From an uncultured Coriobacteriaceae bacterium (GTDB lineage Bacteria > Actinomycetota > Coriobacteriia > Coriobacteriales > Eggerthellaceae), in assembly GCA_902796815.1 (NCBI GenBank), contig CADBQL010000019.1:1-25286 (forward strand): DNA of 25,286 bases. Reading direction: 5' to 3'. Below the pieces are notes generated by a model. The model was not told the DNA's origin, did not search any database, and was given only the letters and a program-made list of their open reading frames with translations. Below, piece by piece: positions 1-10,567 of this stretch. A program made the position numbers and the translations under genes. Numbering within the stretch: the stretch's first letter is position 1; the number at the start of each line of letters is the position of its first letter.

Positions 1-17
1 ATCGGCGCTTTTCAGCG

Positions 18-46
18 ATGAGTCTCGCCCCTGGGGCGCGACTCAT
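18..46. repeat. 29-bp palindromic intergenic repeat, copy 1
   Basis: atgagtctcgcccc-t-ggggcgcgactcat: 14-bp arms with one mismatch; matches copies at 989, 3857 and 9305. Confidence 0.85.
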
Positions 47-98
47 CCGAAAATGAGATTAGCCCCGCAGCCGCGACTCGTATCGCAACTTACTCGAT

Positions 99-944
99 CT
101 ACGATTTGCGAAAGTTGATGATGGCGCGGATGAGGCAAAACGCAGATACGGCGCCTGCGACGATCATGAGGCTGCCATCGCCGCCGCGCTGGTACAGCTG
201 AATGACAAGCGAAGCGAAAATGATGGAGCCTGCAACCCATAGCAATGCGTTCATCTGGTTCAAGCGCTTTTCCCTCAGACGAGCCGTTGCGTTTCCGCTG
301 GCTGCGCGTTCTGCTTCCTCGGCAAGCCTCCGATCGCGTTCCTCCCAATACGCCTGGCCTTTTTCGTCGCGTCGACTTTGGTGTTCGATGACGAAGGCGC
401 GGTAGCAGCAAAGAAGCGCCTCCGCAGTGTCTGCGAGCGTGTTGCCTGGTTGTTTGATGTCGTAATATGCGCACATATCGAAAAGCGATGTCGTCGGCGC
501 AGGCTCGCCTGGGTAGTCTTGGGCGCAGTGGGCTTCGCGAAACTCGTCGCTCATGTCAAAGCTGCGATGTGCGGGCAGCGATATCCAACTTGCCTCGATG
601 AGCGTCTGGGCGAAAGCGGTGTGCTCGCATACCACGATAGACGCCTTGTCTACGATTTCGATGATTTCATCTTCGAATTGATAGAGCTCAGGTTCGTCGC
701 AGACATCGTCAGGCGCAATTCCTCCCGATGCATCGGAAGGAGCCCATTGCTCGACATTTTGGGGGTTTACCCGTTTGCGGAAGAGCTCGCGTCCACCAAA
801 ATCGCTAATGAAAAGCTCGACGATTTCGTCTCCCGCTAACGAAAAACCAGTTGTGTGCATTGTGATCACGCAGCCGTTTTCTAGCGGAAGCGCCGCTAAC
901 TCGAGCAAACGCTCGTCTCCCTGCTCGCGATATTCGTAGAGCAT
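99..944 (-). CDS. DnaQ/DEDDh 3'-5' exonuclease-like protein, catalytically degenerate, with two C-terminal TM helices (281 aa)
   Basis: ATG at 944 with GGAGAGG RBS upstream. ITMHTTG...DEIVEL resembles the DxETTG..DxIIEI motif I, and EHTAF resembles HNxxFD. Hydrophobic segments ALLWVAGSIIFASLVIQLY and LMIVAGAVSAFCLIRAII at the C-terminus. Confidence 0.7.
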   Translation of the reverse strand: MLYEYREQGDERLLELAALPLENGCVITMHTTGFSLAGDEIVELFISDFGGRELFRKRVNPQNVEQWAPSDASGGIAPDDVCDEPELYQFEDEIIEIVDKASIVVCEHTAFAQTLIEASWISLPAHRSFDMSDEFREAHCAQDYPGEPAPTTSLFDMCAYYDIKQPGNTLADTAEALLCCYRAFVIEHQSRRDEKGQAYWEERDRRLAEEAERAASGNATARLREKRLNQMNALLWVAGSIIFASLVIQLYQRGGDGSLMIVAGAVSAFCLIRAIINFRKS

Positions 945-988
945 TGCGCCCCTCTCCATCTCGAATGAGTTCTGCCCTCGGGATAAGA

Positions 989-1017
989 ATGAGTTTTGCC
1001 CCTGGGGCAAAACTCAT
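989..1017. repeat. 29-bp palindromic intergenic repeat, copy 2 (preceded by a degenerate half copy at 965-982)
   Basis: atgagttttgcccc-t-ggggcaaaactcat is a perfect palindrome; atgagttctgccctcggg lies 24 bp upstream. Confidence 0.85.
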
Positions 1018-1042
1018 TTTACTACGGCAGATGGCGGTAAAG

Positions 1043-1051
1043 TGCTATCAT
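1043..1051 (+). promoter_or_regulatory. possible extended -10 promoter for tRNA-Arg
   Basis: TGcTATCAT 13 nt upstream of the mature tRNA 5' end; no clear -35. Confidence 0.4.
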
Positions 1052-1064
1052 AGAGAAGTTACGC

Positions 1065-1141
1065 GCCCCCATAGCTCAGTTGTATAGAGCAGCTGCCTTC
1101 TAAGCAGCGGGTCGTAGGTTAGAGTCCTACTGGGGGCGCCA
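1065..1141 (+). tRNA. tRNA-Arg (anticodon TCT)
   Basis: Cloverleaf: acceptor GCCCCCA/TGGGGGC, D stem GCTC/GAGC, anticodon stem GCTGC/GCAGC with loop CTTCTAA, T stem GTAGG/CCTAC, encoded CCA; 77 nt. Confidence 0.95.
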
Positions 1142-1152
1142 GCCGACGATTG

Positions 1153-1181
1153 ACGAACCACCATTGCGGCGGTTCGTTTTG
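1153..1181 (+). terminator. intrinsic terminator after tRNA
   Basis: acgaaccacc-attgc-ggcggttcgt stem-loop followed by a T-rich run. Confidence 0.6.
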
Positions 1182-1260
1182 TTATTGAGCTGGAAACAAG
1201 ACCAAATGCGCCTGTGCAAAAATGGGTTCAGGTGTTGCGGACGACGAAACGGAGGATGTT

Positions 1261-2268
1261 ATGGGAAGCCTGAAAGGCCGCGATTTTTTGAAGCTGCTCG
1301 ATTTCTCGAGCGATGAGATCCGCCATCTGCTAGATCTGTCTCACCAGCTCAAGGCTATGAAACACAACGGAGTGCCCCATAAGTTCCTTGAGGGGAAAAA
1401 CATCGTGCTCCTGTTCGAAAAAACCTCGACGCGCACGCGCTGCTCGTTTGAGGTGGCAGGCTACGATTTGGGCATGGGCGTGACGTTTTTGGATCCGGGC
1501 AGCTCGCAGGTCTCCAAGAAAGAATCCATCGCCGACACGGCGCGTGTGCTTTCGCGTTTCTACGACGGTATCGAGTATCGCGGGTTTGGGCAAGATATTG
1601 TCGAGGAGCTGGCGCATTATGCCGATTGTCCGGTCTGGAATGGCCTTACCAACGAATGGCATCCGACGCAGATGATCGCTGACATCATGACGATGCAGGA
1701 AGCCTTCGGGCAAGATTTGAGTGGCCGTACGCTCGTGTTCATGGGCGATGCGCGCAATAACGTGGCCAATTCGCTCATGGTTGTATGCGCCAAGCTCGGC
1801 GTTAACTTTGTTGCGTGTGGTCCGGCGGAAAATCAGCCTGAGGGTTGGCTTGTGGAAACATGCACCGCCATCGCTGAGCAAAACGGCTCGACAGTGCTGG
1901 TGACAGACGATGTCGAGAAAGGGTGCGCTGGTGCCGACGCCATCTATACCGACGTTTGGGTCTCGATGGGCGAGCCTGATGAGGTTTGGGAACAGCGCAT
2001 CAAATCGCTTTCGCCGTATCAGGTGAATACCCATGTAATGCAGCTCGCATCGCCCGATGCCATTTTCCTGCACTGCCTGCCTTCGTTCCATGATACGAAG
2101 ACTACGATAGGCGCAAAGATCGCAGAGCGCTTCGGGCTGCCCGAAATGGAAGTGACCGATGAGGTGTTTGAATCGGCCCAATCGCGCGTGTTCGACGAAG
2201 CTGAGAATCGCATGCATGCAATCAAGGCGATTATGTATGCGACGCTTTTGGACGAACCGTTGAACTAA
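1261..2268 (+). CDS. argF: ornithine carbamoyltransferase (ArgF/ArcB family, 335 aa)
   Basis: GGAGG RBS at 1251-1255 before ATG 1261. Motifs FEKTSTRT, HPTQ, DVWVSMG, HCLP. Anabolic versus catabolic role cannot be resolved from sequence. Confidence 0.95.
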   Translation: MGSLKGRDFLKLLDFSSDEIRHLLDLSHQLKAMKHNGVPHKFLEGKNIVLLFEKTSTRTRCSFEVAGYDLGMGVTFLDPGSSQVSKKESIADTARVLSRFYDGIEYRGFGQDIVEELAHYADCPVWNGLTNEWHPTQMIADIMTMQEAFGQDLSGRTLVFMGDARNNVANSLMVVCAKLGVNFVACGPAENQPEGWLVETCTAIAEQNGSTVLVTDDVEKGCAGADAIYTDVWVSMGEPDEVWEQRIKSLSPYQVNTHVMQLASPDAIFLHCLPSFHDTKTTIGAKIAERFGLPEMEVTDEVFESAQSRVFDEAENRMHAIKAIMYATLLDEPLN

Positions 2269-2306
2269 AATAGCTCCTGACTGTTTTTGCCTGGAGGAGG
2301 AAGCGC

Positions 2307-3791
2307 ATGTCCCCAAACGATGAGTATTGGAATCATCAGCAACCGATTGCTCAGCCCCAGATGCAGCAAGGACCAACACAGCAGCCGCTGCCGCAGGATG
2401 AGTTATCCGGGCAGGTGGGCGCTTCTTCGCGGGTTCGCATGTCTAATCAGGCGCAATCGGGCCTGTCGGCACAGCCTATTGAAGAGGATCGGGAGCAATC
2501 GGGGGCGGCAAAGCCACAGCCGCAGGTTGTGCAGTCGGTCCAGGCACAGCGGCCAGTTGAATTTAGACCCCAGTATACTAATCAATTCGAGATGGGGGGC
2601 TCCGCCCAATTGTTTGAGCCCAATCAAGCCCAGCAGCAATCGCAAGTAGCGCACCTGATGCAGGCTTCGCAATTTGAGCCGGAACAGCAGCAGGCGCAAG
2701 CGCAGCCGGCTGCGCAATTCGTCGGCGATTGGAACGCCCCCGCACAAGCGCAGTCTCAACCAGCTGCGCAATTCGCAGGCGAATGGCATGCCCCCGCGGC
2801 GCCGCAGGCGCAAGCTGCAGGATATGCCACGCAAACATCGCAGCAAGCCACGGCTGCGGCGCAGAAAAAAAGCCGCGGTTGGATTGTCGCTATCGTCATC
2901 ACTTTGAGCGTGCTTGCATTCCTGTGCTTTTCGGTCTATTCGTGTACGAACACACTATCGGGCTTGTCTACGATCAACACGTCGGGCGATTATGGGTTGG
3001 ACGGCGTTGATGGCGATGTGGTTGCTGTCATCGATCTCGACGGTACCATCCAGTACGATGGCACGGCCTGCAGTCCCGAGGGACTCAAGGAGTTGCTCGA
3101 CCGCGCCCAGGAAAACAATCATGTCAAGGCTCTCGTGCTGCGCGTGAATTCTGGCGGCGGCACGGCGACTGCCGGCGAGGAGATGGCCGAGTATCTGAGG
3201 CAATTCGACAAGCCCGTCGTCGTTTCAAGCGCGTCTATCAATGCATCGGCTGCCTACGAGATTTCATCACAAGCCGATTATATTTATGTTGCCAAATCGA
3301 CCGAGATTGGAGCCATCGGCACAGTCATGCAGGTGACCGATTTGTCGGGTTTGTTCGAGAAGCTCGGCATCAAGATGGAAACCATTGCATCAGCGGAAAG
3401 CAAGGACTCGTCTTATGGCTACCGCTCGCTGACGGAAGAGGAGCGCGCATACTACCAGGATATGATTACGCAGATCAACGACATGTTCATCGAAAACGTG
3501 GCGACAGGGCGCAAGATGAAGGAAGCGGATGTGCGCAAGCTTGCGACAGGACTCGTTTTCACGGGTGCTACAGCCGTCGAAAACGGTCTTGCCGATGGGA
3601 TAGGGACGCGTGAGGATGCGGTGAAGAAGGCCGCTGAGCTTGCGGGAATTACGGAATACACGACCGCGAATCTCACGTTGACGTCATACGATTTGGGAAA
3701 CCTCGCCTACCTGCTCGGCGAAGATCGCTCGTCAGCTTCGGATCTGCTGAAGCTGCTCGAGCAGGCTGATGAGGCGAAGCTGCGCCAGTAA
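2307..3791 (+). CDS. sppA: signal peptide peptidase SppA (S49) with long Gln/Ala-rich N-terminal extension and one TM helix
   Basis: GGAGG RBS; LRVNSGGG, ASAAYEIS (catalytic Ser), EIGAIG, SKD (Lys) and GLADGIG motifs; TM WIVAIVITLSVLAFLCFSVY. Confidence 0.88.
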   Translation: MSPNDEYWNHQQPIAQPQMQQGPTQQPLPQDELSGQVGASSRVRMSNQAQSGLSAQPIEEDREQSGAAKPQPQVVQSVQAQRPVEFRPQYTNQFEMGGSAQLFEPNQAQQQSQVAHLMQASQFEPEQQQAQAQPAAQFVGDWNAPAQAQSQPAAQFAGEWHAPAAPQAQAAGYATQTSQQATAAAQKKSRGWIVAIVITLSVLAFLCFSVYSCTNTLSGLSTINTSGDYGLDGVDGDVVAVIDLDGTIQYDGTACSPEGLKELLDRAQENNHVKALVLRVNSGGGTATAGEEMAEYLRQFDKPVVVSSASINASAAYEISSQADYIYVAKSTEIGAIGTVMQVTDLSGLFEKLGIKMETIASAESKDSSYGYRSLTEEERAYYQDMITQINDMFIENVATGRKMKEADVRKLATGLVFTGATAVENGLADGIGTREDAVKKAAELAGITEYTTANLTLTSYDLGNLAYLLGEDRSSASDLLKLLEQADEAKLRQ

Positions 3792-3856
3792 GCTACGAGA
3801 GGGCGAATGAGCCAAGTCCTGTAGCTCGGCACATCGATTACGAGCCCGCCCGACTA

Positions 3857-3885
3857 ATGAGTTATGCTCCCGAGGCGTGACTCAT
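3857..3885. repeat. 29-bp palindromic intergenic repeat, copy 3 (diverged)
   Basis: atgagttatgctcc-c-gaggcgtgactcat: 3 of 4 deviations from perfect pairing are T:G wobble-compatible. Confidence 0.75.
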
Positions 3886-3916
3886 CGCACAGAACCAACA
3901 AGAGGGGATAAGAAGC

Positions 3917-5935
3917 ATGACGAAAAAGACCACAGCATTCGAGCGTCAGAAATGGCCGGCGCGCGCCGTCGTTACGGCGGGCATGCCGTATGGCAACAAG
4001 CCGCTGCACTTTGGGCACATTGCCGGCGTATTTGTTCCCGCTGATTGCTATGCCCGCTTTCTGCGCGATCGCATCGGCGAAGAGAATGTTCGCTTTATCA
4101 GCGGAACCGACTGCTTCGGATCTCCGATTGACGAAGGGTATCGCAAGCTCGTAGAAGCAGGGCAGTTCGACGGAACTATTTCGGAGTATGTGCAGCGAAA
4201 CCATGATGCGCAAAAGGCCACGCTCGATGCCTACGACATCTCGCTTAGCATCTACGAGGGTTCTGGCATCGGACGCGCTGGTGAACGCCAACAAGAGGTT
4301 TCCGAAAATCTCATCCGGCGCTTACACGAGAACGGTTGGCTGCATAAGCGCTCGACGCTGCAGTTTTTCGACGCTGAAGCCGGTATCTACCTCAATGGCC
4401 GTCAGGTGACTGGTCGTTGTCCTGTTCAGGGCTGCAAGTCCGATCAGGGTTATGCCGATGAGTGCTCGCTTGGCCACAGCTATGCCCCCGAGGACCTCAT
4501 CGCTCCCAAATCGACGGTAACAGGCACTGTGCCCGAGATGCGTCCAGTGGACAATTGGTATTTCGATCTTCCAGCGTTTAGGGATTTCCTCATCGAACAC
4601 GTTAAGAGTTTGGAGGCGGATCCCAATATTCGTTCCATCGTGCCACAGACGTGCGCCGAGTTTTTGGGCGCGCCCATCATATATGTCAAGAATGACGAAC
4701 GCGAGCTGTTCGAAGGCGTTTCGGCGCAGTTACCAGCGCATGTGGTGCGCGAGCCTGAGGCAGGCAAGGCGTCTTTCGAGGTCGAGTTCGAATCCATCGA
4801 TGCGCGCGACGATGCGCGTGACGTGTTGCGCCGAGCCGGCCTGCGTTTTCGCACCGGGAAAGCGCTTGTGCCGTTCCGTATCACCGGCAATATCGAATGG
4901 GGCGTAAAAGCGCCGGTTATCGATGGGGTTGAAGGCTTGACCGTGTGGTGCTGGCCCGAAAGCCTTTGGGCACCGATTTCGTTTACGATGGCGGCTAACG
5001 ACGGGCTTGGCTTGAGCGAAGACAGCTGGCGCGATTTCTGGTGTGATGAAGATGCCGAGGTTTACCAGTTCATCGGCCAAGATAATCTGTATTTCTATGG
5101 GGTCGTACAGCCGGCGCTTTGGGAAGCGCTGCGTCCAGGTGAGATTTTCTCGCACGATGCTACCGACCGTCCGTTGCGGCAGACGCGGCTCATCGCGAAC
5201 TACCACGTATTGCTCGGTAACAAGAAGGCCTCCTCTTCGGGGGCTGTCAAGCCTCCTACGGCTGATGAGCTGCTTGAGCATTACACGGCCGCGCAGTTAC
5301 GTGCGCATTTCCTTGCGCTTGGGCTCGATCAGAAGTCCGTCGGCTTCAAACCTAAGGCGTTTGATCCCGACGAGAGCGTGCGAAACGACACGCGCGTGGC
5401 CGATCCTGCGCTCAAGGAATCGAAGCTGCTGTCTAATGTGTTCAACCGTTTGGCGCGCAGTGTGCTCTATGAGGCAAAACGTAATTTCGATTGCAAGATT
5501 CCTATGTGCGCTCCCACGCCTGCGGTTGTTGAGCGGGCTTTGCGCACATTGGGGGATTACGATCGGATCATGAAGAAAGCGGAGCTGCATTCCATCATGT
5601 CACTTATGGACGAGTTCATTAGATTCGCGAATAAGACCTGGGCTGATGGTATTTCGGCAGCTGAAGAATCCGAGGATGCGAACGCCCGCCGCCAGGTGCT
5701 CGCCGATGCAGCGTATCTGCTGTGGATCTGTACGTTGCTCATGCATCCAGTTGTTCCAGCAGGTTGCGAAGATATCTGCGAAAAGCTCGACTTTGACCCG
5801 AAGACGTTTTTCAGCTGGGAGCACGAGTTCGCGTCGCTTGCAGAGCTGGCCATCGAGCCTGATGAGCCTGCCGTTTTGCCAGATGGCAGGCAGCATGTCG
5901 TGCAGGAACTTCCCCCTCGTTACGATTTCTTCTAA
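3917..5935 (+). CDS. metG: methionine--tRNA ligase (672 aa)
   Basis: TAGMPYGNKPLHFGH (HIGH), SGTDCFG, Zn knuckle CPVQGC...DECSLGH, VWCWPES, FIGQDN, KASSS at the KMSKS position. Confidence 0.93.
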   Translation: MTKKTTAFERQKWPARAVVTAGMPYGNKPLHFGHIAGVFVPADCYARFLRDRIGEENVRFISGTDCFGSPIDEGYRKLVEAGQFDGTISEYVQRNHDAQKATLDAYDISLSIYEGSGIGRAGERQQEVSENLIRRLHENGWLHKRSTLQFFDAEAGIYLNGRQVTGRCPVQGCKSDQGYADECSLGHSYAPEDLIAPKSTVTGTVPEMRPVDNWYFDLPAFRDFLIEHVKSLEADPNIRSIVPQTCAEFLGAPIIYVKNDERELFEGVSAQLPAHVVREPEAGKASFEVEFESIDARDDARDVLRRAGLRFRTGKALVPFRITGNIEWGVKAPVIDGVEGLTVWCWPESLWAPISFTMAANDGLGLSEDSWRDFWCDEDAEVYQFIGQDNLYFYGVVQPALWEALRPGEIFSHDATDRPLRQTRLIANYHVLLGNKKASSSGAVKPPTADELLEHYTAAQLRAHFLALGLDQKSVGFKPKAFDPDESVRNDTRVADPALKESKLLSNVFNRLARSVLYEAKRNFDCKIPMCAPTPAVVERALRTLGDYDRIMKKAELHSIMSLMDEFIRFANKTWADGISAAEESEDANARRQVLADAAYLLWICTLLMHPVVPAGCEDICEKLDFDPKTFFSWEHEFASLAELAIEPDEPAVLPDGRQHVVQELPPRYDFF

Positions 5936-5962
5936 CGCGTAAAAGGGTTGAGGTCAAAAGGA

Positions 5963-6000
5963 CGATGCCCGCGTGCATGTAGCATGCGGGCATCGGTTTC
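5963..6000 (+). terminator. intrinsic terminator after metG
   Basis: cgatgcccgcgtgc-atgta-gcatgcgggcatcg 14-bp stem followed by gtttc. Confidence 0.7.
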
Positions 6001-6161
6001 CTGTGTAATTTTTTGAACTATGTGCGCACTCTCGTCAAAACGTTATGGATGTTTCTCCTCTGGAAAATGACGCATTCAACATAAGAGGAGGTGAAAGGGC
6101 ATTTTTTTTTGCAAAAAGCAAACGGCGCACGTGTGCAACTTTTTTGTTCGAGCAAAATCGG

Positions 6162-6170
6162 TGGTAATCT
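6162..6170 (+). promoter_or_regulatory. possible extended -10 (TGgTAATCT) for NlpC/P60 gene 1
   Basis: An identical TGGTAATCT occurs upstream of the paralog (7692-7700) at a similar distance from the start codon. Confidence 0.45.
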
Positions 6171-6208
6171 TTGAGGGCACCCAAAGCAGGAATTGGAGGG
6201 ATAATTCA

Positions 6209-7426
6209 ATGAATTACTCACTCGGAAGAAGCCGCAGCGGGCAGTTCGTAGCTCTAATCGTAGCAACAATCGTAGCAAGCGCGATTCTGTTTATCGCAAC
6301 TCCGGCATATGCAGTCACTGCGGCGGAAAAAGAAGCAGAAGCCCAAGAAGCTCTGAATCAGCTGTACGCTCTGCAGGACACACTCGAACAAAAATCAGCT
6401 GAGTACTACCAATCTTTGGCCGAATACCAGGATGCCGTGACATTGCGCGATGCTGCGCAAGAGCGCATCGATGCGATTTCCGGCGAAATCACAGAGATTC
6501 AGGGCAGGTTGGGATCGCGTGCGCGTGAAATGTATCGCAACGGTGCCACGTCGTTTATCGACTTGCTGTTTGGTGCCACGTCGTTTGACGAGTTCACTCA
6601 GAATTGGGATATCCTGAATCGCCTGAATAGCAACGATGCCGAGCTTTCGACTAAGGCCAAGGCATTGCGCAACGAAACTAAGCGCAAGAAGACCGAGCTC
6701 ACGAAGCAGGCTGGCATTGCTGAGAAGAAATCGGCAAATGCACAGCGTGCCTTCAAAGAGTCGCAGGAGCTCGTTGCGCAGATGCAAGAGACCTACAATG
6801 GTCTTAGCGCAGAAGCGCGCAGGCTGTACGAAGAAGAGCAAGCCGCTGCCGCTGCGGCTGCCGCTGCAGCCGCCGCTGCCGCTGCTCAAGCGCAAGCCGA
6901 GGCTGAAGCCGCCGCTGCTGCCGAATACGACGGGGATGACGGATCCGGCGCTTATGAGGATGAGGAAACGGGCGAGACGTACTATTATTCCGATGGCGAC
7001 AACAACTATGTTGCCACGGAAGGTGCAGTCGAAAACGATGACGGCACGGTAACCGACATCAACACGGGTGAAACGTATGATTCGCCTACGGAATACACGG
7101 CATCGACCGGAAATGAAATCGTTGATCGCGCGGCATCTATGCTTGGTAGTGCCTACCAATACGGTGGCACGGGCGCTGACGGTACGTTCGACTGCTCGGG
7201 TCTTGTTGGCTATGCTCTGACCGGCACGACCGAGCGTATCGGTAACACCACCTCGTTCATGAGCGACTATAATCAGGTGAGCGATCCTCAGCCAGGTGAC
7301 ATTGCAGTGAACGCAGGCCATACCGGCATCTACATCGGCAACGGCCAGATGATTCACGCAGGCGATGAGTCTACGGGCGTCATTGTGGGCGACGTGCAAG
7401 ACGGTATGATTTACGTTCGTCCATAG
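6209..7426 (+). CDS. secreted coiled-coil + NlpC/P60 (C40) peptidoglycan endopeptidase, paralog 1 (405 aa)
   Basis: GGAGG RBS before ATG 6209; signal peptide ending AYA; PcsB/CwlO-like coiled coil; poly-Ala linker; FDCSGLV (Cys) and GHTGIYIGNGQMIHA (His). Confidence 0.92.
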   Translation: MNYSLGRSRSGQFVALIVATIVASAILFIATPAYAVTAAEKEAEAQEALNQLYALQDTLEQKSAEYYQSLAEYQDAVTLRDAAQERIDAISGEITEIQGRLGSRAREMYRNGATSFIDLLFGATSFDEFTQNWDILNRLNSNDAELSTKAKALRNETKRKKTELTKQAGIAEKKSANAQRAFKESQELVAQMQETYNGLSAEARRLYEEEQAAAAAAAAAAAAAAAQAQAEAEAAAAAEYDGDDGSGAYEDEETGETYYYSDGDNNYVATEGAVENDDGTVTDINTGETYDSPTEYTASTGNEIVDRAASMLGSAYQYGGTGADGTFDCSGLVGYALTGTTERIGNTTSFMSDYNQVSDPQPGDIAVNAGHTGIYIGNGQMIHAGDESTGVIVGDVQDGMIYVRP

Positions 7427-7466
7427 GTGTGCTTTTCAAGTACCGTACACAATGTTGTTCTAGTCG

Positions 7467-7500
7467 AGCGGCTGCAGCGAAGTGTTGCAGCCGCTTTTTT
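7467..7500 (+). terminator. intrinsic terminator after NlpC/P60 gene 1
   Basis: agcggctgcagc-gaagt-gttgcagccgct followed by a T run. Confidence 0.85.
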
Positions 7501-7691
7501 GTATTGTTCATGCAGGTTTGGGCACATATGCTTTTCGCCCGCCTTGTCACATGGGTAGTAGCAATAGCGCTCATATACACAATATGCTGTATATAGTCGT
7601 ACATACTATGTAGTTTCAGAGGTCAAAATATGGCTCTGACGTTGGGTTTTGATAACTCTTCAAAAGAAGTCAGTAATTGAAAACCCATATA

Positions 7692-7700
7692 TGGTAATCT
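7692..7700 (+). promoter_or_regulatory. possible extended -10 (TGgTAATCT) for NlpC/P60 gene 2
   Basis: Same 9-mer as at 6162-6170; 36 nt upstream of the ATG. Confidence 0.45.
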
Positions 7701-7736
7701 GGGTACCATGCGAAACGCTATGCAAACGGAGGTCAT

Positions 7737-9134
7737 ATGATGCAGCATACGACGCAAGATGAATCGCACTTCTTGGCAACAACAAGCAGGGTTTTATTCA
7801 TGCTTGCGGTTGCCGTTGGTGTCGCTTTGTTCGTATCGCCCCATTCAGCCCATGCAGTGACAGCAGCCGAGAAGCAAGCCGAAGCCGAAGCGGCTTATGC
7901 AAATCTCATGGCCATGCAGGAGTCTCTCGACCGCCTTTCGGCACAGTACGGCGAGGCTCTTTCCGCCCAAGAGGAAGCCGAGAAGAAGCATAAGGCCGCC
8001 GAAGTGAGGATCGGCGAGATTACCGAAGAGATAGAATCGGTTCAGTCGAGCCTGAATGAGCATGCGCGCGAAATGTATCGTTCTGGTAGCGTGAAGTTTT
8101 TGGAAATAGTTCTGGGCGCATCCTCGTTTGAGGAGTTTGCCACAAGCTTGGACATGGCAAATCGCGTAAATCAAAACGAAGCTGCACTGGTAGACGAGCA
8201 TCGAGCTCTGAAAGAGGAAGCCGTAGAGCAAGAGGCTATCCTACAAGAGCAAGCAGAAGTTGCTGCTAAGAAATCGGAAGAGGCAGCAGCGGCTGAACAG
8301 CAGGCGCAGGCGACCGTCGCCGAAATGGATGCGGTGTACCAGAGCCTGAGCGCCGAGGCTGCGGAATTGCTCGAAGAAGAGCGCAAGGCCCGTGAGGCGG
8401 AAGAAGCCGCGCGTGCTGCCGCTGTGCTCGAGGCGGCCAGGATTGCGGCAGAGCAAGAGGAAGCTGCGCGTGCGGCACAAGAAGCTGCCGAAGCGGAGGC
8501 GGAAGAAGAAGCTGAAGAGGACGAGGCTGCAGAGGATGAGTCCGACGAGTCCGACGAGTCCGATGGCGAGAACTATGTCGACGAGGATGGCGACGGCTAC
8601 GATGACGAGACCGGCGAAGAAATCAGCGAAGAAGAGGCAGAAGAAGGCGAGTCCGACGGGGAATCTGATGACGAATCATCGGACGAGAATGCGGATGACG
8701 AAGAATCCACCGATGACGAGGGTGACAAAGAATCCACCGACGAAGCGGGCGACGAAGAAGCTACTTCTGAAGAGCCTTCCGATGATGGTGGCAACGCAGC
8801 ACCTGCCTACGAGGGCGGAAGCGATACTGTAAGCCGTGCCCAGGCATGTCTGAGTGCCCCATATGTATGGGGAGGTGTCGGTCCTGAAGGATACGACTGC
8901 TCAGGACTGGTGAGTTACTGCCTGACCGGGAGCCACACGCGTCTCGGCACGACGGTAACGTTCATGGGATGGCCGCAGGTTGCGGATCCTCAGCCAGGTG
9001 ATATTGCCGTGAACTGGGGACATACCGGCGTCTATATCGGTGGCGGCCAGATGATTCATGCAGCAACTTATGGCGTAGGCGTTATCACCGGGCCAGTTCA
9101 GGACGGTATGATTTTCGTTCGTTATCCCGGTTAG
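7737..9134 (+). CDS. secreted coiled-coil + NlpC/P60 endopeptidase, paralog 2, with very acidic linker (465 aa)
   Basis: GGAGG RBS; signal peptide ending AHA then VTAAEK as in paralog 1; YDCSGLV and GHTGVYIGGGQMIHA; D/E-rich linker of ~100 aa. Confidence 0.92.
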   Translation: MMQHTTQDESHFLATTSRVLFMLAVAVGVALFVSPHSAHAVTAAEKQAEAEAAYANLMAMQESLDRLSAQYGEALSAQEEAEKKHKAAEVRIGEITEEIESVQSSLNEHAREMYRSGSVKFLEIVLGASSFEEFATSLDMANRVNQNEAALVDEHRALKEEAVEQEAILQEQAEVAAKKSEEAAAAEQQAQATVAEMDAVYQSLSAEAAELLEEERKAREAEEAARAAAVLEAARIAAEQEEAARAAQEAAEAEAEEEAEEDEAAEDESDESDESDGENYVDEDGDGYDDETGEEISEEEAEEGESDGESDDESSDENADDEESTDDEGDKESTDEAGDEEATSEEPSDDGGNAAPAYEGGSDTVSRAQACLSAPYVWGGVGPEGYDCSGLVSYCLTGSHTRLGTTVTFMGWPQVADPQPGDIAVNWGHTGVYIGGGQMIHAATYGVGVITGPVQDGMIFVRYPG

Positions 9135-9304
9135 GAATGGGTCGCGACCAGGACTCGGCTCATCTGGACGCTTTGCTGTTATTCTGCTGAGTGATGTCCA
9201 GAGGGGGACGAAGGGTAAGGTTTTCGCGCGTTGTTTCGCTTCGGTGCTGGATAACTGGCTGCTTGTATGCCGTCTGTGCACCCGCTGGGCATTACGTTTG
9301 TCTC

Positions 9305-9333
9305 ATGAGTCACGCCCCTGGGGCGTGACTCAT
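9305..9333. repeat. 29-bp palindromic intergenic repeat, copy 4
   Basis: atgagtcacgcccc-t-ggggcgtgactcat is a perfect palindrome, 19 nt upstream of the rnhA ATG. Confidence 0.85.
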
Positions 9334-9352
9334 TTTCGATAAGGATGTGGGT

Positions 9353-9835
9353 ATGGCAAAACACGTGGAGCTTTACTCGGATGGATCGTCGCGCGGCAAT
9401 CCAGGTCCTGGTGGCTATGGGACGGTGCTGCGCTATGTAGACGCCGGTGGCGTTGCGCACGAACGCGAGCTTTCGCAAGGGTTTGTTGAGACTACGAACA
9501 ATCGGATGGAGTTACTTGGGGCAATAACGGGCTTCGAGGCGCTCAAGTATCCGTGCACCGTGGATTTCTACTCTGATTCCCAATACGTTATTAAGGCTTT
9601 TACCGAAAATTGGATTGCTGGCTGGCTCAAGCGCGGTTGGAAGAACGCGAGCAGGCAGCCCGTCAAGAACGTCGATCTTTGGAAGCGTCTGATTGCCGCG
9701 GTTGAGCCCCATGACGTGACGTTTCATTGGGTGCGCGGTCATGCAGGCCATCCCGAAAACGAGCGATGCGACGCGCTTGCGACAGCAGCCGCTGATGGCG
9801 AAGAGCTTGTCGTCGACGAAGGGTTTTCGTTGTAA
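9353..9835 (+). CDS. rnhA: ribonuclease HI (160 aa)
   Basis: [50 protein letters not shown]; AAGGA RBS. Confidence 0.97.
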
Positions 9836-9985
9836 GGACGACCCTTGTTTCTGTTTGCGACCTGTTTTGCCCAATCGCGGCCTACCTCGCCTGACTACGG
9901 CGCACGGCATCAAACCGTAGCCTGTCGTGTCCGTATAGCCTTTTGGCGATTCGAATTGTGGGTTGCTGGCGTAAAGCAGATTTTT

Positions 9986-10567
9986 TTACATTACGTAACT
10001 TTTGATGATGCGTCGCAGCTCGTCCATGCCATCGCCTTTCAGCGAGGACGTGATGACCATCGGAACGTCGTCTCCTATGTTGAGTTGGCGTTTGATGGCT
10101 GCTCGCTGTTGGTTGCACTTTGATTTGGAAAGCTTATCGCCTTTGGTGAGCACGATGAGGTAGGGCAGCTCAGCTTCCTGTAAGAATCCGACCATGTTTT
10201 CGTCGAGCGCACTTGCAGGATGGCGCACATCGATGAGTGAGCAGACGAGGGCGAAATTGCGATCTTGGTTGAAATAGCCCTCTATGAGTTCAGACCACCG
10301 CTCGCGCTCGGATTTGGAGACTCTTGCAAATCCGTATCCAGGTAAATCGACGAGAAATGCGTTGCCTGCCTTGAAAAAATTGATCGTTGCGGTTTTGCCT
10401 GGTTTCTGCGAGACGCGCGCCAGGTTTTTTTGTCCGACGAGCTTGTTGAGCAGCGAAGACTTGCCAACGTTTGAGCGACCTGCGAATGCGACTTCAGGCA
10501 GGATCGATGGCGGCAGTTGGCGTGAGGTTCCAAACGATTTATCGTAGGTGACGTTTTTGAAGTCCAA
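9986..10567 (-). CDS. engB: ribosome biogenesis GTPase YihA/YsxC (193 aa)
   Basis: GRSNVGKSS (G1), KPGKT (G2), DLPGYG (G3), TKGD (G4); TTG start after GGAGG at 10576-10572. Confidence 0.95.
   Translation of the reverse strand: MDFKNVTYDKSFGTSRQLPPSILPEVAFAGRSNVGKSSLLNKLVGQKNLARVSQKPGKTATINFFKAGNAFLVDLPGYGFARVSKSERERWSELIEGYFNQDRNFALVCSLIDVRHPASALDENMVGFLQEAELPYLIVLTKGDKLSKSKCNQQRAAIKRQLNIGDDVPMVITSSLKGDGMDELRRIIKSYVM

Follow-up and report, generated by a model that had tools for sequence, protein, structure and literature searches.

The stretch of DNA analyzed here (the window) is contig C19 of an uncultured Coriobacteriaceae bacterium (CADBQL010000019.1, 25,286 nucleotides), taken at its full length. 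The genome assembly to which it belongs (GCA_902796815.1, referred to as G000) comprises 2.34 Mb in 476 contigs with 56.7% GC and is approximately 70% complete, and DNA of this source is present in bovine gut metagenome runs. The closest homologues of one of its proteins bear names from Eggerthellaceae/Coriobacteriales. Toward its left end, the window carries a minus-strand gene (99-944), a tRNA at 1065-1138 that is confirmed by Rfam, metG (3917-5935) and rnhA (9353-9835, RNase H), and the spacers next to these genes harbor four copies of a short palindromic element. We consider it likely that these copies are part of a family of the repetitive extragenic palindromic (REP) type that is specific to the species, abundant in its genome and scattered by the genome's single cognate Y1/HUH enzyme, which resembles the REP-associated tyrosine transposases (RAYTs, also TnpA_REP).

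A search with the pattern ATGAGT-N3-GCCCC-T-GGGGC-N3-ACTCAT recovers the four copies reported in a first-pass annotation of the window, those at 18-46, 989-1017 and 9305-9333 without mismatch and that at 3857-3885 with three mismatches, and gives no match in any of 100 dinucleotide-preserving shuffles. Together with more decayed relatives, the elements in the window are the following:

17..47 (core 18-46), plus strand: copy 1, 0 mismatches to the pattern, nhmmer score 35.3 bits
53..81, plus strand: degenerate full copy, 2 outer-arm mismatches, inner stem decayed
965..988, no strand assigned: truncated or decayed copy (ATGAGTTCTGCCCTCGGG...), read from the sequence, under the nhmmer threshold, abutting copy 2
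988..1018 (core 989-1017), no strand assigned: copy 2, 0 mismatches, 35.7 bits
3807..3835, no strand assigned: possible strongly decayed relic (ATGAGCCAAG...CACATC), read from the sequence, without statistical support
3856..3886 (core 3857-3885), no strand assigned: copy 3, decayed, 3 mismatches, 23.1 bits
9304..9334 (core 9305-9333), no strand assigned: copy 4, 0 mismatches, 36.7 bits

Copy 1 is located at the contig end, downstream of the stop codon of the minus-strand gene, and is of the asymmetric plus type (left triplet CTC, right triplet GCG, centre T, one T-C triplet mismatch). With the degenerate copy at 53-81, it forms a two-unit direct array with a distance of 35 bp, the modal array period of the genome. 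Copy 2 is a perfect TTT/AAA palindrome of the minority homotypic type, folds as single-stranded DNA with -14.3 kcal/mol and is placed in the spacer that separates the true start of the minus-strand gene (ATG at 944) from the tRNA. The open reading frame (ORF) called at 99-1010 is over-extended into this copy, the plausible start being the ATG at 944 behind GGAGAGG. Two elements described earlier as half copies are real, though a different description suits them better: the one starting with cgaaaatgag is the beginning of the degenerate full copy at 53-81 and the one at 965-988 is a truncated copy. Copy 3 lies 32 bp upstream of the metG start and deviates mostly by wobbles, as first noted (three T:G and one C:A mismatch, read from the sequence); its predicted folding is weak and near background, with z-scores of -1.3 on the plus and 0.14 on the minus strand. 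The possible relic precedes it by 50 bp, which corresponds to the second modal spacing (class 46-56 bp). Copy 4, a perfect CAC/GTG palindrome, is found 20 bp upstream of the rnhA start, 8 nt ahead of its Shine-Dalgarno sequence. All four copies are intergenic, with Pfam confirming metG, rnhA and the neighboring genes, and an Rfam scan of window positions 1-10000 at E values up to 1 returned the tRNA only, with no match at any copy.

A census of the whole genome offers a better view of the family. Allowing for up to 4 mismatches over the 22 fixed positions, we found 543 copies in G000, 333 of them exact, and 0 in the shuffled genome. A profile hidden Markov model built from these copies (nhmmer) raised the number to ~600, among them variants with 1-nt indels as well as units that are truncated or interrupted by a contig end. 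The window's few copies are thus members of a population of hundreds (~550-600), with a density of ~1 per 4 kb, or ~4% of the intergenic DNA. As many as 101 of the 543 copies lie within 300 bp of contig ends, a zone that holds 12% of the sequence, indicating that the repeats help to fragment the assembly and that the true copy number is higher.

Genes were called with our own simple, crude codon-usage caller, which assigns 84% of the genome as coding and 16% as non-coding. Against this background, 436 of the 543 copies lie wholly between genes, 56 overlap a gene boundary and 51 fall inside a called gene, most of the latter within the first ~40 codons of over-extended ORFs. The intergenic enrichment anticipated from the four copies is therefore evident, with about 80% or more of the copies outside genes. 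ORFs extend into the repeats because the unit starts with ATG and two of its frames are free of stop codons. Approximately 40 called genes display a repeat-derived N-terminal extension, encoding the peptides MSxAPGAKLI or NExxPWGxTH, so that the ATG codons provided by the repeats lead to false N-terminal extensions in gene calls. The copies are distributed over 298 loci with 1-4 copies each, and occupy 60 of 196 convergent, 136 of 931 tandem and 30 of 196 divergent spacers, convergent spacers being occupied about twice as often. Exact-pattern scans of genome and metagenome contig collections yielded no loci; the source genome itself is possibly masked there, so this result is uninformative on distribution. 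Two other repeat features were seen in G000. A second abundant repeat with the core ATGACATAAAGTCGGGTTTTTTGTCAT, whose commonest 14-mers occur ~46 times, is unrelated in sequence to the main family, and C142:408-464 contains three 19-bp half copies (CCCCTGGGGCGAAACTCAT) in head-to-tail order, a tandem arrangement made up solely of right arms.

The only match to PF01797 (Y1_Tnp) in the ~70% complete G000 assembly is on contig C318. This ORF, P0001, comprises 265 aa from the first in-frame ATG, and its homologues align from M12, the second in-frame ATG and likely start. Repeat copies flank the gene, three on its upstream side, 88 bp from the likely start, and one and a half on its downstream side, at a distance of 30-50 bp, and all orientable copies around it have the same direction and the modal asymmetric type. 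The gene that the first-pass annotation proposed to look for, a RAYT/TnpA(Y1) gene flanked by copies, is hence present as a single intact gene with copies on both sides. The only other RAYT trace in G000 is a fragment of 42 aa at C451:2899-3024, which is RAYT-like and contains a stop.

Sequence and predicted structure of P0001 both point to a RAYT-like enzyme. A homologue search gave 516 cluster representatives at E <= 1e-30; the 150 homologues listed are ~250 aa long and aligned over nearly their full length, a few fragments excepted, and the nearest one outside the species, among the matches listed, shares 47% identity. In 37 homologues, the HxH motif (H71, H73), Y130-x-H-x-N-P and WSSY are invariant or nearly so, and we take the Y-x-H-x-N-P tyrosine motif to be of the RAYT type. 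A profile of the homologues matches best 4ER8 (E. coli TnpA_REP) in the PDB, with E 7e-7, ahead of ISDra2 and IS200; phmmer with the single protein P0001 gave no Y1 match in the PDB, so the profile is needed. The AlphaFold model of P0001 (pLDDT 90) displays a helical C-terminal domain, and its best Foldseek match is again 4er8_A (TM 0.74, target-normalized), followed by the ISDra2, IS200 and IS608 transposases. With NCBIfam REP_Tyr_transpos (REP-associated tyrosine transposase), P0001 scores 56 bits, the equivalog cut-off being 80. The C-terminal part carries a weak helix-turn-helix (HTH) signal, with 21.6 bits for HTH_23 and 20.8 bits for HTH_7, each just below cut-off; these families match 9-10 of the 37 homologues, and the HTH is strongly conserved in the Y1 protein family as TGIGRNIVQRA.

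The family is species-specific. Among 40 related genomes, including 19 congeners, the main family occurs with 0-3 copies in the congeners and is missing in all others. Homologues of the transposase (34-51% identity) are found in 13 of the 19 congeners and in some other genera, and in at least 5 of the 11 homologue loci examined, the gene lies between copies of its own 29-bp palindrome. Within the genus, the palindromes of these sister families share the ATGAGT/ACTCAT outer arms, whereas the inner stems, self-complementary in each case, are wholly dissimilar; the copy numbers per genome are 13, 33, 45 and at least 359. The sister family of G004, ATGAGT-AGCAGGA-NNN-TCCTGCT-ACTCAT (at least 359 copies, L039-L045), is organized in doublets, with 26 of 29 neighbor pairs inverted and a distance of 37-40 or 67-70 bp, the classical layout of REPINs, the doublets of inverted REPs. 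The families of G006 and G013 and a minor family of G000 have the core GGGGTCAG, which fits GGGGWSAS, while the main G000 family, with GGGGCRYG, departs from it.

The minor sister family in G000, ATGAGC-...GGGGTC-W-GACCC...-GCTCAT, amounts to 22 copies/loci (e.g., C212:621, C324:5582, C441:6738), and no intact cognate Y1 gene was found for it in the ~70% complete G000 assembly. A hybrid unit, TGAGTCAGGGGCCAGGGCACCGACTCA, is found in G006 and G013 (e.g., at G006:C18:11172-11235), where it forms inverted pairs at a distance of 37 bp. The inner halves of this unit are not self-complementary, so that a long hairpin would be formed only by the doublet.

The individual unit of the main family is a 29-31 bp imperfect palindrome, R-ATGAGT-YNY-GCCCC-W-GGGGC-RNR-ACTCAT-Y, one base longer on each side than first described (R at -1 and T or C at +30 in the flank logo of 331 oriented copies). 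Beyond these two positions, the flanks are not conserved and contain neither GTAG nor CGTC, in agreement with the early remark that the classical GTAG foot is absent. As single-stranded DNA, a typical copy is predicted to fold into a foot stem of 6-7 bp, a 3x3 internal loop, a GC stem of 4-5 bp and a 3-nt loop, with an energy of -7 to -10 kcal/mol; rare perfect copies reach -14 to -16 kcal/mol. The internal loop is usually mismatched or G:T.

This last feature bears on the first-pass proposal that the variable triplet changes in both arms together and that pairing matters more than sequence, which the genome-wide data contradict. For the pairs 7-23, 8-22 and 9-21, Watson-Crick combinations occur in 203, 106 and 234 of the 543 copies, compared to 255, 193 and 273 expected for independent arms, and fully complementary triplets number 44 compared to 72.7 +/- 7.8 in shuffles. 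The TTT/AAA and CAC/GTG copies of the window, which had suggested co-varying arms, represent a minority type genome-wide. Triplet mismatches are clearly tolerated and not compensated, and the notion of pairing does not apply to the triplet, which forms an internal loop that is neither paired nor compensated. Most frequent is an asymmetric arrangement that combines TTY in one arm with CRY in the opposite arm (258 copies vs 180 expected), and this may simply reflect descent from an asymmetric master copy. Real covariation in the system is confined to the inner stem and to comparisons of sister families from different species. Across eleven hand-picked representative sequences, 8 of 13 stem pairs show compensatory, two-sided change, and 95% of the cells are paired, compared to 72% in shuffles and ~40% with the partner slid.

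Two thirds of neighboring copies in G000 lie within 120 bp of each other, with spacing peaks at 34-36 and 46-56 bp and spacers of 5-27 bp in the arrays. Neighbors are oriented predominantly in the same direction, with 110 direct vs 9 inverted pairs when judged by arm asymmetry and 189 vs 35 when judged by similarity of the central sequence. Identity at all seven variable positions is found in 15.5% of neighbor pairs compared to 1.6% of random pairs; some successive spacers are near-identical, many others are unrelated. The resemblance of neighbors and the near-identical spacers indicate that the arrays grew partly by local tandem duplication.

Comparison of orthologous loci reveals places at which copies are present in G000 and absent from relatives. 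A GH13 alpha-amylase-family gene on C318 contains an in-frame insert of ~40 aa (…EMSHAPGAKLIPEMSHAPGAVLISE…) between its catalytic and C-terminal parts, and this insert holds two copies:

L001:621-745 (G000 contig C318, about 2190-2315): GH13 insert, two copies plus ~50 bp more

The orthologues in G011 and G013 run through this position uninterrupted. In-frame palindromic elements of Rickettsia resemble this insert. At metG, the upstream spacer with copy 3 and the possible relic is ~95 bp longer than in G007, G011 and G014, and the relic falls within the stretch that these congeners lack. The proposed test of presence or absence at orthologous loci thus yields copy 3 as missing from the metG spacer of three congeners and the GH13 copies as missing from two orthologues. 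A test for target-site duplications at the copies gave no conspicuous signal at 3 bp or above (for k>=3 only scattered matches, 0-17 of 540), and at k=2 the matches are near chance except at offset 2 (73 vs ~38). Four bovine/gut read sets, with short contigs only, gave no readable presence/absence polymorphism; copies 3 and 4 are covered unchanged in one of the sets. Apparent read joints between copies were traced to other repeat loci mapping onto the copies. The rnhA locus in two other assemblies is identical through copy 4, and being from the same strain these assemblies are uninformative.

The observations are best explained by a REP-type family because 436 of 543 copies are intergenic, the congeners have 0-3 copies and the RAYT-like gene is flanked by copies. 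The first-pass preference for REP/REPIN-like hairpins served by a HUH/RAYT transposase over a simple operator is therefore supported. We infer that the single Y1/HUH enzyme with its C-terminal HTH would copy and scatter the units, and that it would recognize the folded hairpin on single-stranded DNA, by analogy to E. coli TnpA_REP and the transposases of the insertion sequence (IS) families IS200/IS605. The hairpin would be cut and rejoined without target-site duplications, and after insertion, local tandem duplication would give rise to direct arrays of 2-4 copies. A wider possibility, on which we are nearly evenly divided with a slight lean to doubt, is that HTH-bearing TnpA_REP enzymes (subclass 2.1/TIRYT) are true REP mobilizers driving a genus-wide radiation in rumen Eggerthellaceae. 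Each species would then possess its own enzyme-hairpin pair with a conserved ATGAGT/ACTCAT foot and a swapped inner stem, and the organization would switch between direct arrays (G000) and REPIN-like inverted doublets (G004). This would provide, within a Gram-positive phylum, a naturally occurring series of specificity swaps among Y1/HUH enzymes.

A number of points weigh against a REP-type system moved by this enzyme. Neither direct evidence of mobility nor within-species polymorphism was found in the data searched. Orientation is unbiased with regard to gene direction, contig GC skew and gene strand, so no replication-strand signature is seen, though with a genome in so many pieces the test has little power. 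The GTAG/CGTC foot of REPs is missing, neighbors in G000 are direct and do not form the inverted doublets of REPINs, and part of the copy number stems from local tandem duplication, not from transposition. P0001 scores under the equivalog cut-off for REP-associated transposases, and no REP-like sequences were found adjacent to genes of TnpA_REP subclass 2.1 (Quentin 2018, PMC6006769), which P0001 resembles. Finally, the covariation between sister families would be displayed by a duplex site that binds a dimer as well.

We weighed this explanation against three others. The repeats could be structural elements selected by the host, such as mRNA 3'-end stabilizers, weak terminators or sites for nucleoid proteins or gyrase, that spread by recombination and duplication, with the Y1 gene being incidental or a dead relic. 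Their enrichment in convergent spacers, and hence at gene 3' ends, the stable hairpins (-7 to -16 kcal/mol) and the contribution of tandem duplication to the arrays, with the excess of identical neighbors and some duplicated spacers, all agree with such a role, and REPs of E. coli have secondary roles as structural or host elements. We nevertheless regard it as unlikely, as the copies have no orientation bias relative to transcription and no T-run, only the T or C at +30, and some of them reside inside a coding gene (GH13). Moreover, the main family is missing in the congeners, which speaks against a conserved host function, and the pairing of gene and hairpin recurs with different hairpins in at least 5 related loci, which chance adjacency does not explain.

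Dyad-symmetric sites on double-stranded DNA for a dimeric HTH protein, possibly the HTH of the Y1 protein itself, acting as operators or chromosome-organizing sites, would account for the ATGAGT/ACTCAT half-sites at a fixed 17-bp spacing and for the conserved TGIGRNIVQRA element of the Y1 protein family, and arm complementarity is equally expected of a dimer site. However, a single regulon is excluded by the ~600 sites, which are spread over 298 loci beside unrelated genes, and the sites are clustered in arrays and occur also within a gene. Hairpin processing accounts better both for the inner stem, which is wholly changed between species and yet self-complementary, and for the invariance of the catalytic HUH and Tyr residues, and we regard such binding sites as quite improbable. 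Even less credible are miniature inverted-repeat transposable elements (MITEs) left by a DDE-type insertion sequence, or mini-arrays akin to clustered regularly interspaced short palindromic repeats (CRISPR). The units are short inverted repeats, and their direct arrays, in which a partly palindromic repeat of 29 bp alternates with spacers that vary, do recall these elements, but target-site duplications were not detected, 29-31 bp is too short for terminal repeats plus an interior, and the sole associated gene is a Y1 transposase. CRISPR would need long arrays with unique spacers of ~26-72 bp, in contrast to the 1-4 units, 5-27 bp spacers and ~300 loci found here; cas genes were not searched for. 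On this evidence, the operator, terminator, MITE and CRISPR readings were set aside.

Comparison with known systems places the G000 family close to the REP/BIME (bacterial interspersed mosaic element) sequences of E. coli and their TnpA_REP (4ER8). Both consist of short imperfect palindromes, hundreds of them extragenic and often clustered, and both have a single-copy Y1/HUH gene flanked by copies and lack target-site duplications; 4ER8 is also the best profile and fold match of P0001. In contrast to E. coli, the repeats of G000 have no GTAG foot and their neighbors are direct and non-alternating, P0001 exceeds the 165-aa E. coli RAYT by ~100 aa, carries a C-terminal HTH that the latter lacks and scores below the NCBIfam equivalog cut-off, and the host is a Gram-positive member of Coriobacteriia. 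The REPIN-RAYT systems of Pseudomonas (Bertels & Rainey, PMC3116915; RAYT groups 2 and 3, PMC5581495) are similar in that a lineage-specific family is tied to one vertically inherited RAYT and related species have different families, and the inverted doublets of the G004 sister family are arranged like REPINs. They differ in that the G000 unit is a single hairpin in direct arrays, in the C-terminal HTH of P0001, and in that the foot is conserved across the families of the genus while the inner stem is swapped. IS200/IS605 TnpA shares the Y1/HUH fold and the absence of target-site duplication, and the subterminal hairpins of these elements have a counterpart in the copies that face one way upstream and downstream of the C318 gene. 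Unlike in IS200/IS605, the C318 gene is single-copy, not multi-copy, and is vastly outnumbered by the hairpins, and the PDB matches to the IS608, ISDra2 and IS200 enzymes are weaker than that to 4ER8.

The closest parallels are found among RAYT-like enzymes with a C-terminal HTH. Such enzymes, with flanking repeats devoid of GTAG, have been described as TIRYTs and TIRtrons (Di Nocera 2013, PMC3733652), and TnpA_REP subclass 2.1 carries a C-terminal HTH_23 or DnaA-like domain (Quentin 2018, PMC6006769). The first-pass suggestion of an undescribed repeat class was therefore an overstatement. Judged by their described features, not by the authors' models, P0001 resembles these enzymes: it combines a RAYT-like core with a C-terminal HTH and the WSSY serine motif after the catalytic Tyr, and in both cases the flanking repeats lack GTAG and can be self-complementary and clustered. 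The repeat families described next to TIRYT genes are only moderately abundant, and a GGGGWSAS core is present in many of them (Di Nocera 2013, PMC3733652); abundant flanking 16-mers have been tied to RAYT groups 2 and 3 only (Bertels 2017, PMC5581495). Here, ~600 copies are present in 2.3 Mb, and the GGGGWSAS-type core is shared by the sister and minor families with GGGGTCAG, unlike the main family.

Studies of REP/REPIN-RAYT systems have so far been almost only in Proteobacteria, and a full-text literature search found no paper linking REPs to Eggerthellaceae. Copy number, extragenic placement and the flanked transposase support a REP/RAYT-type system in G000, despite the missing GTAG foot and the lack of inverted doublets in this genome. 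What emerges is an expected kind of element in an unexpected lineage, with an unexpected enzyme subclass, very high density and informative sister families: a gut actinobacterium with one of the denser REP-type populations seen and an HTH-bearing enzyme. Its congeners offer matched enzyme-hairpin pairs that differ in the inner stem alone, and thereby a comparative set for hairpin reading by Y1/HUH enzymes, for the birth and death of repeat populations, and for doublets vs direct arrays. The evidence supports a Gram-positive counterpart of the E. coli and Pseudomonas REP/RAYT systems, not a regulatory site, unusual in its HTH-bearing subclass and in its direct arrays as opposed to the inverted doublets of a sister species.

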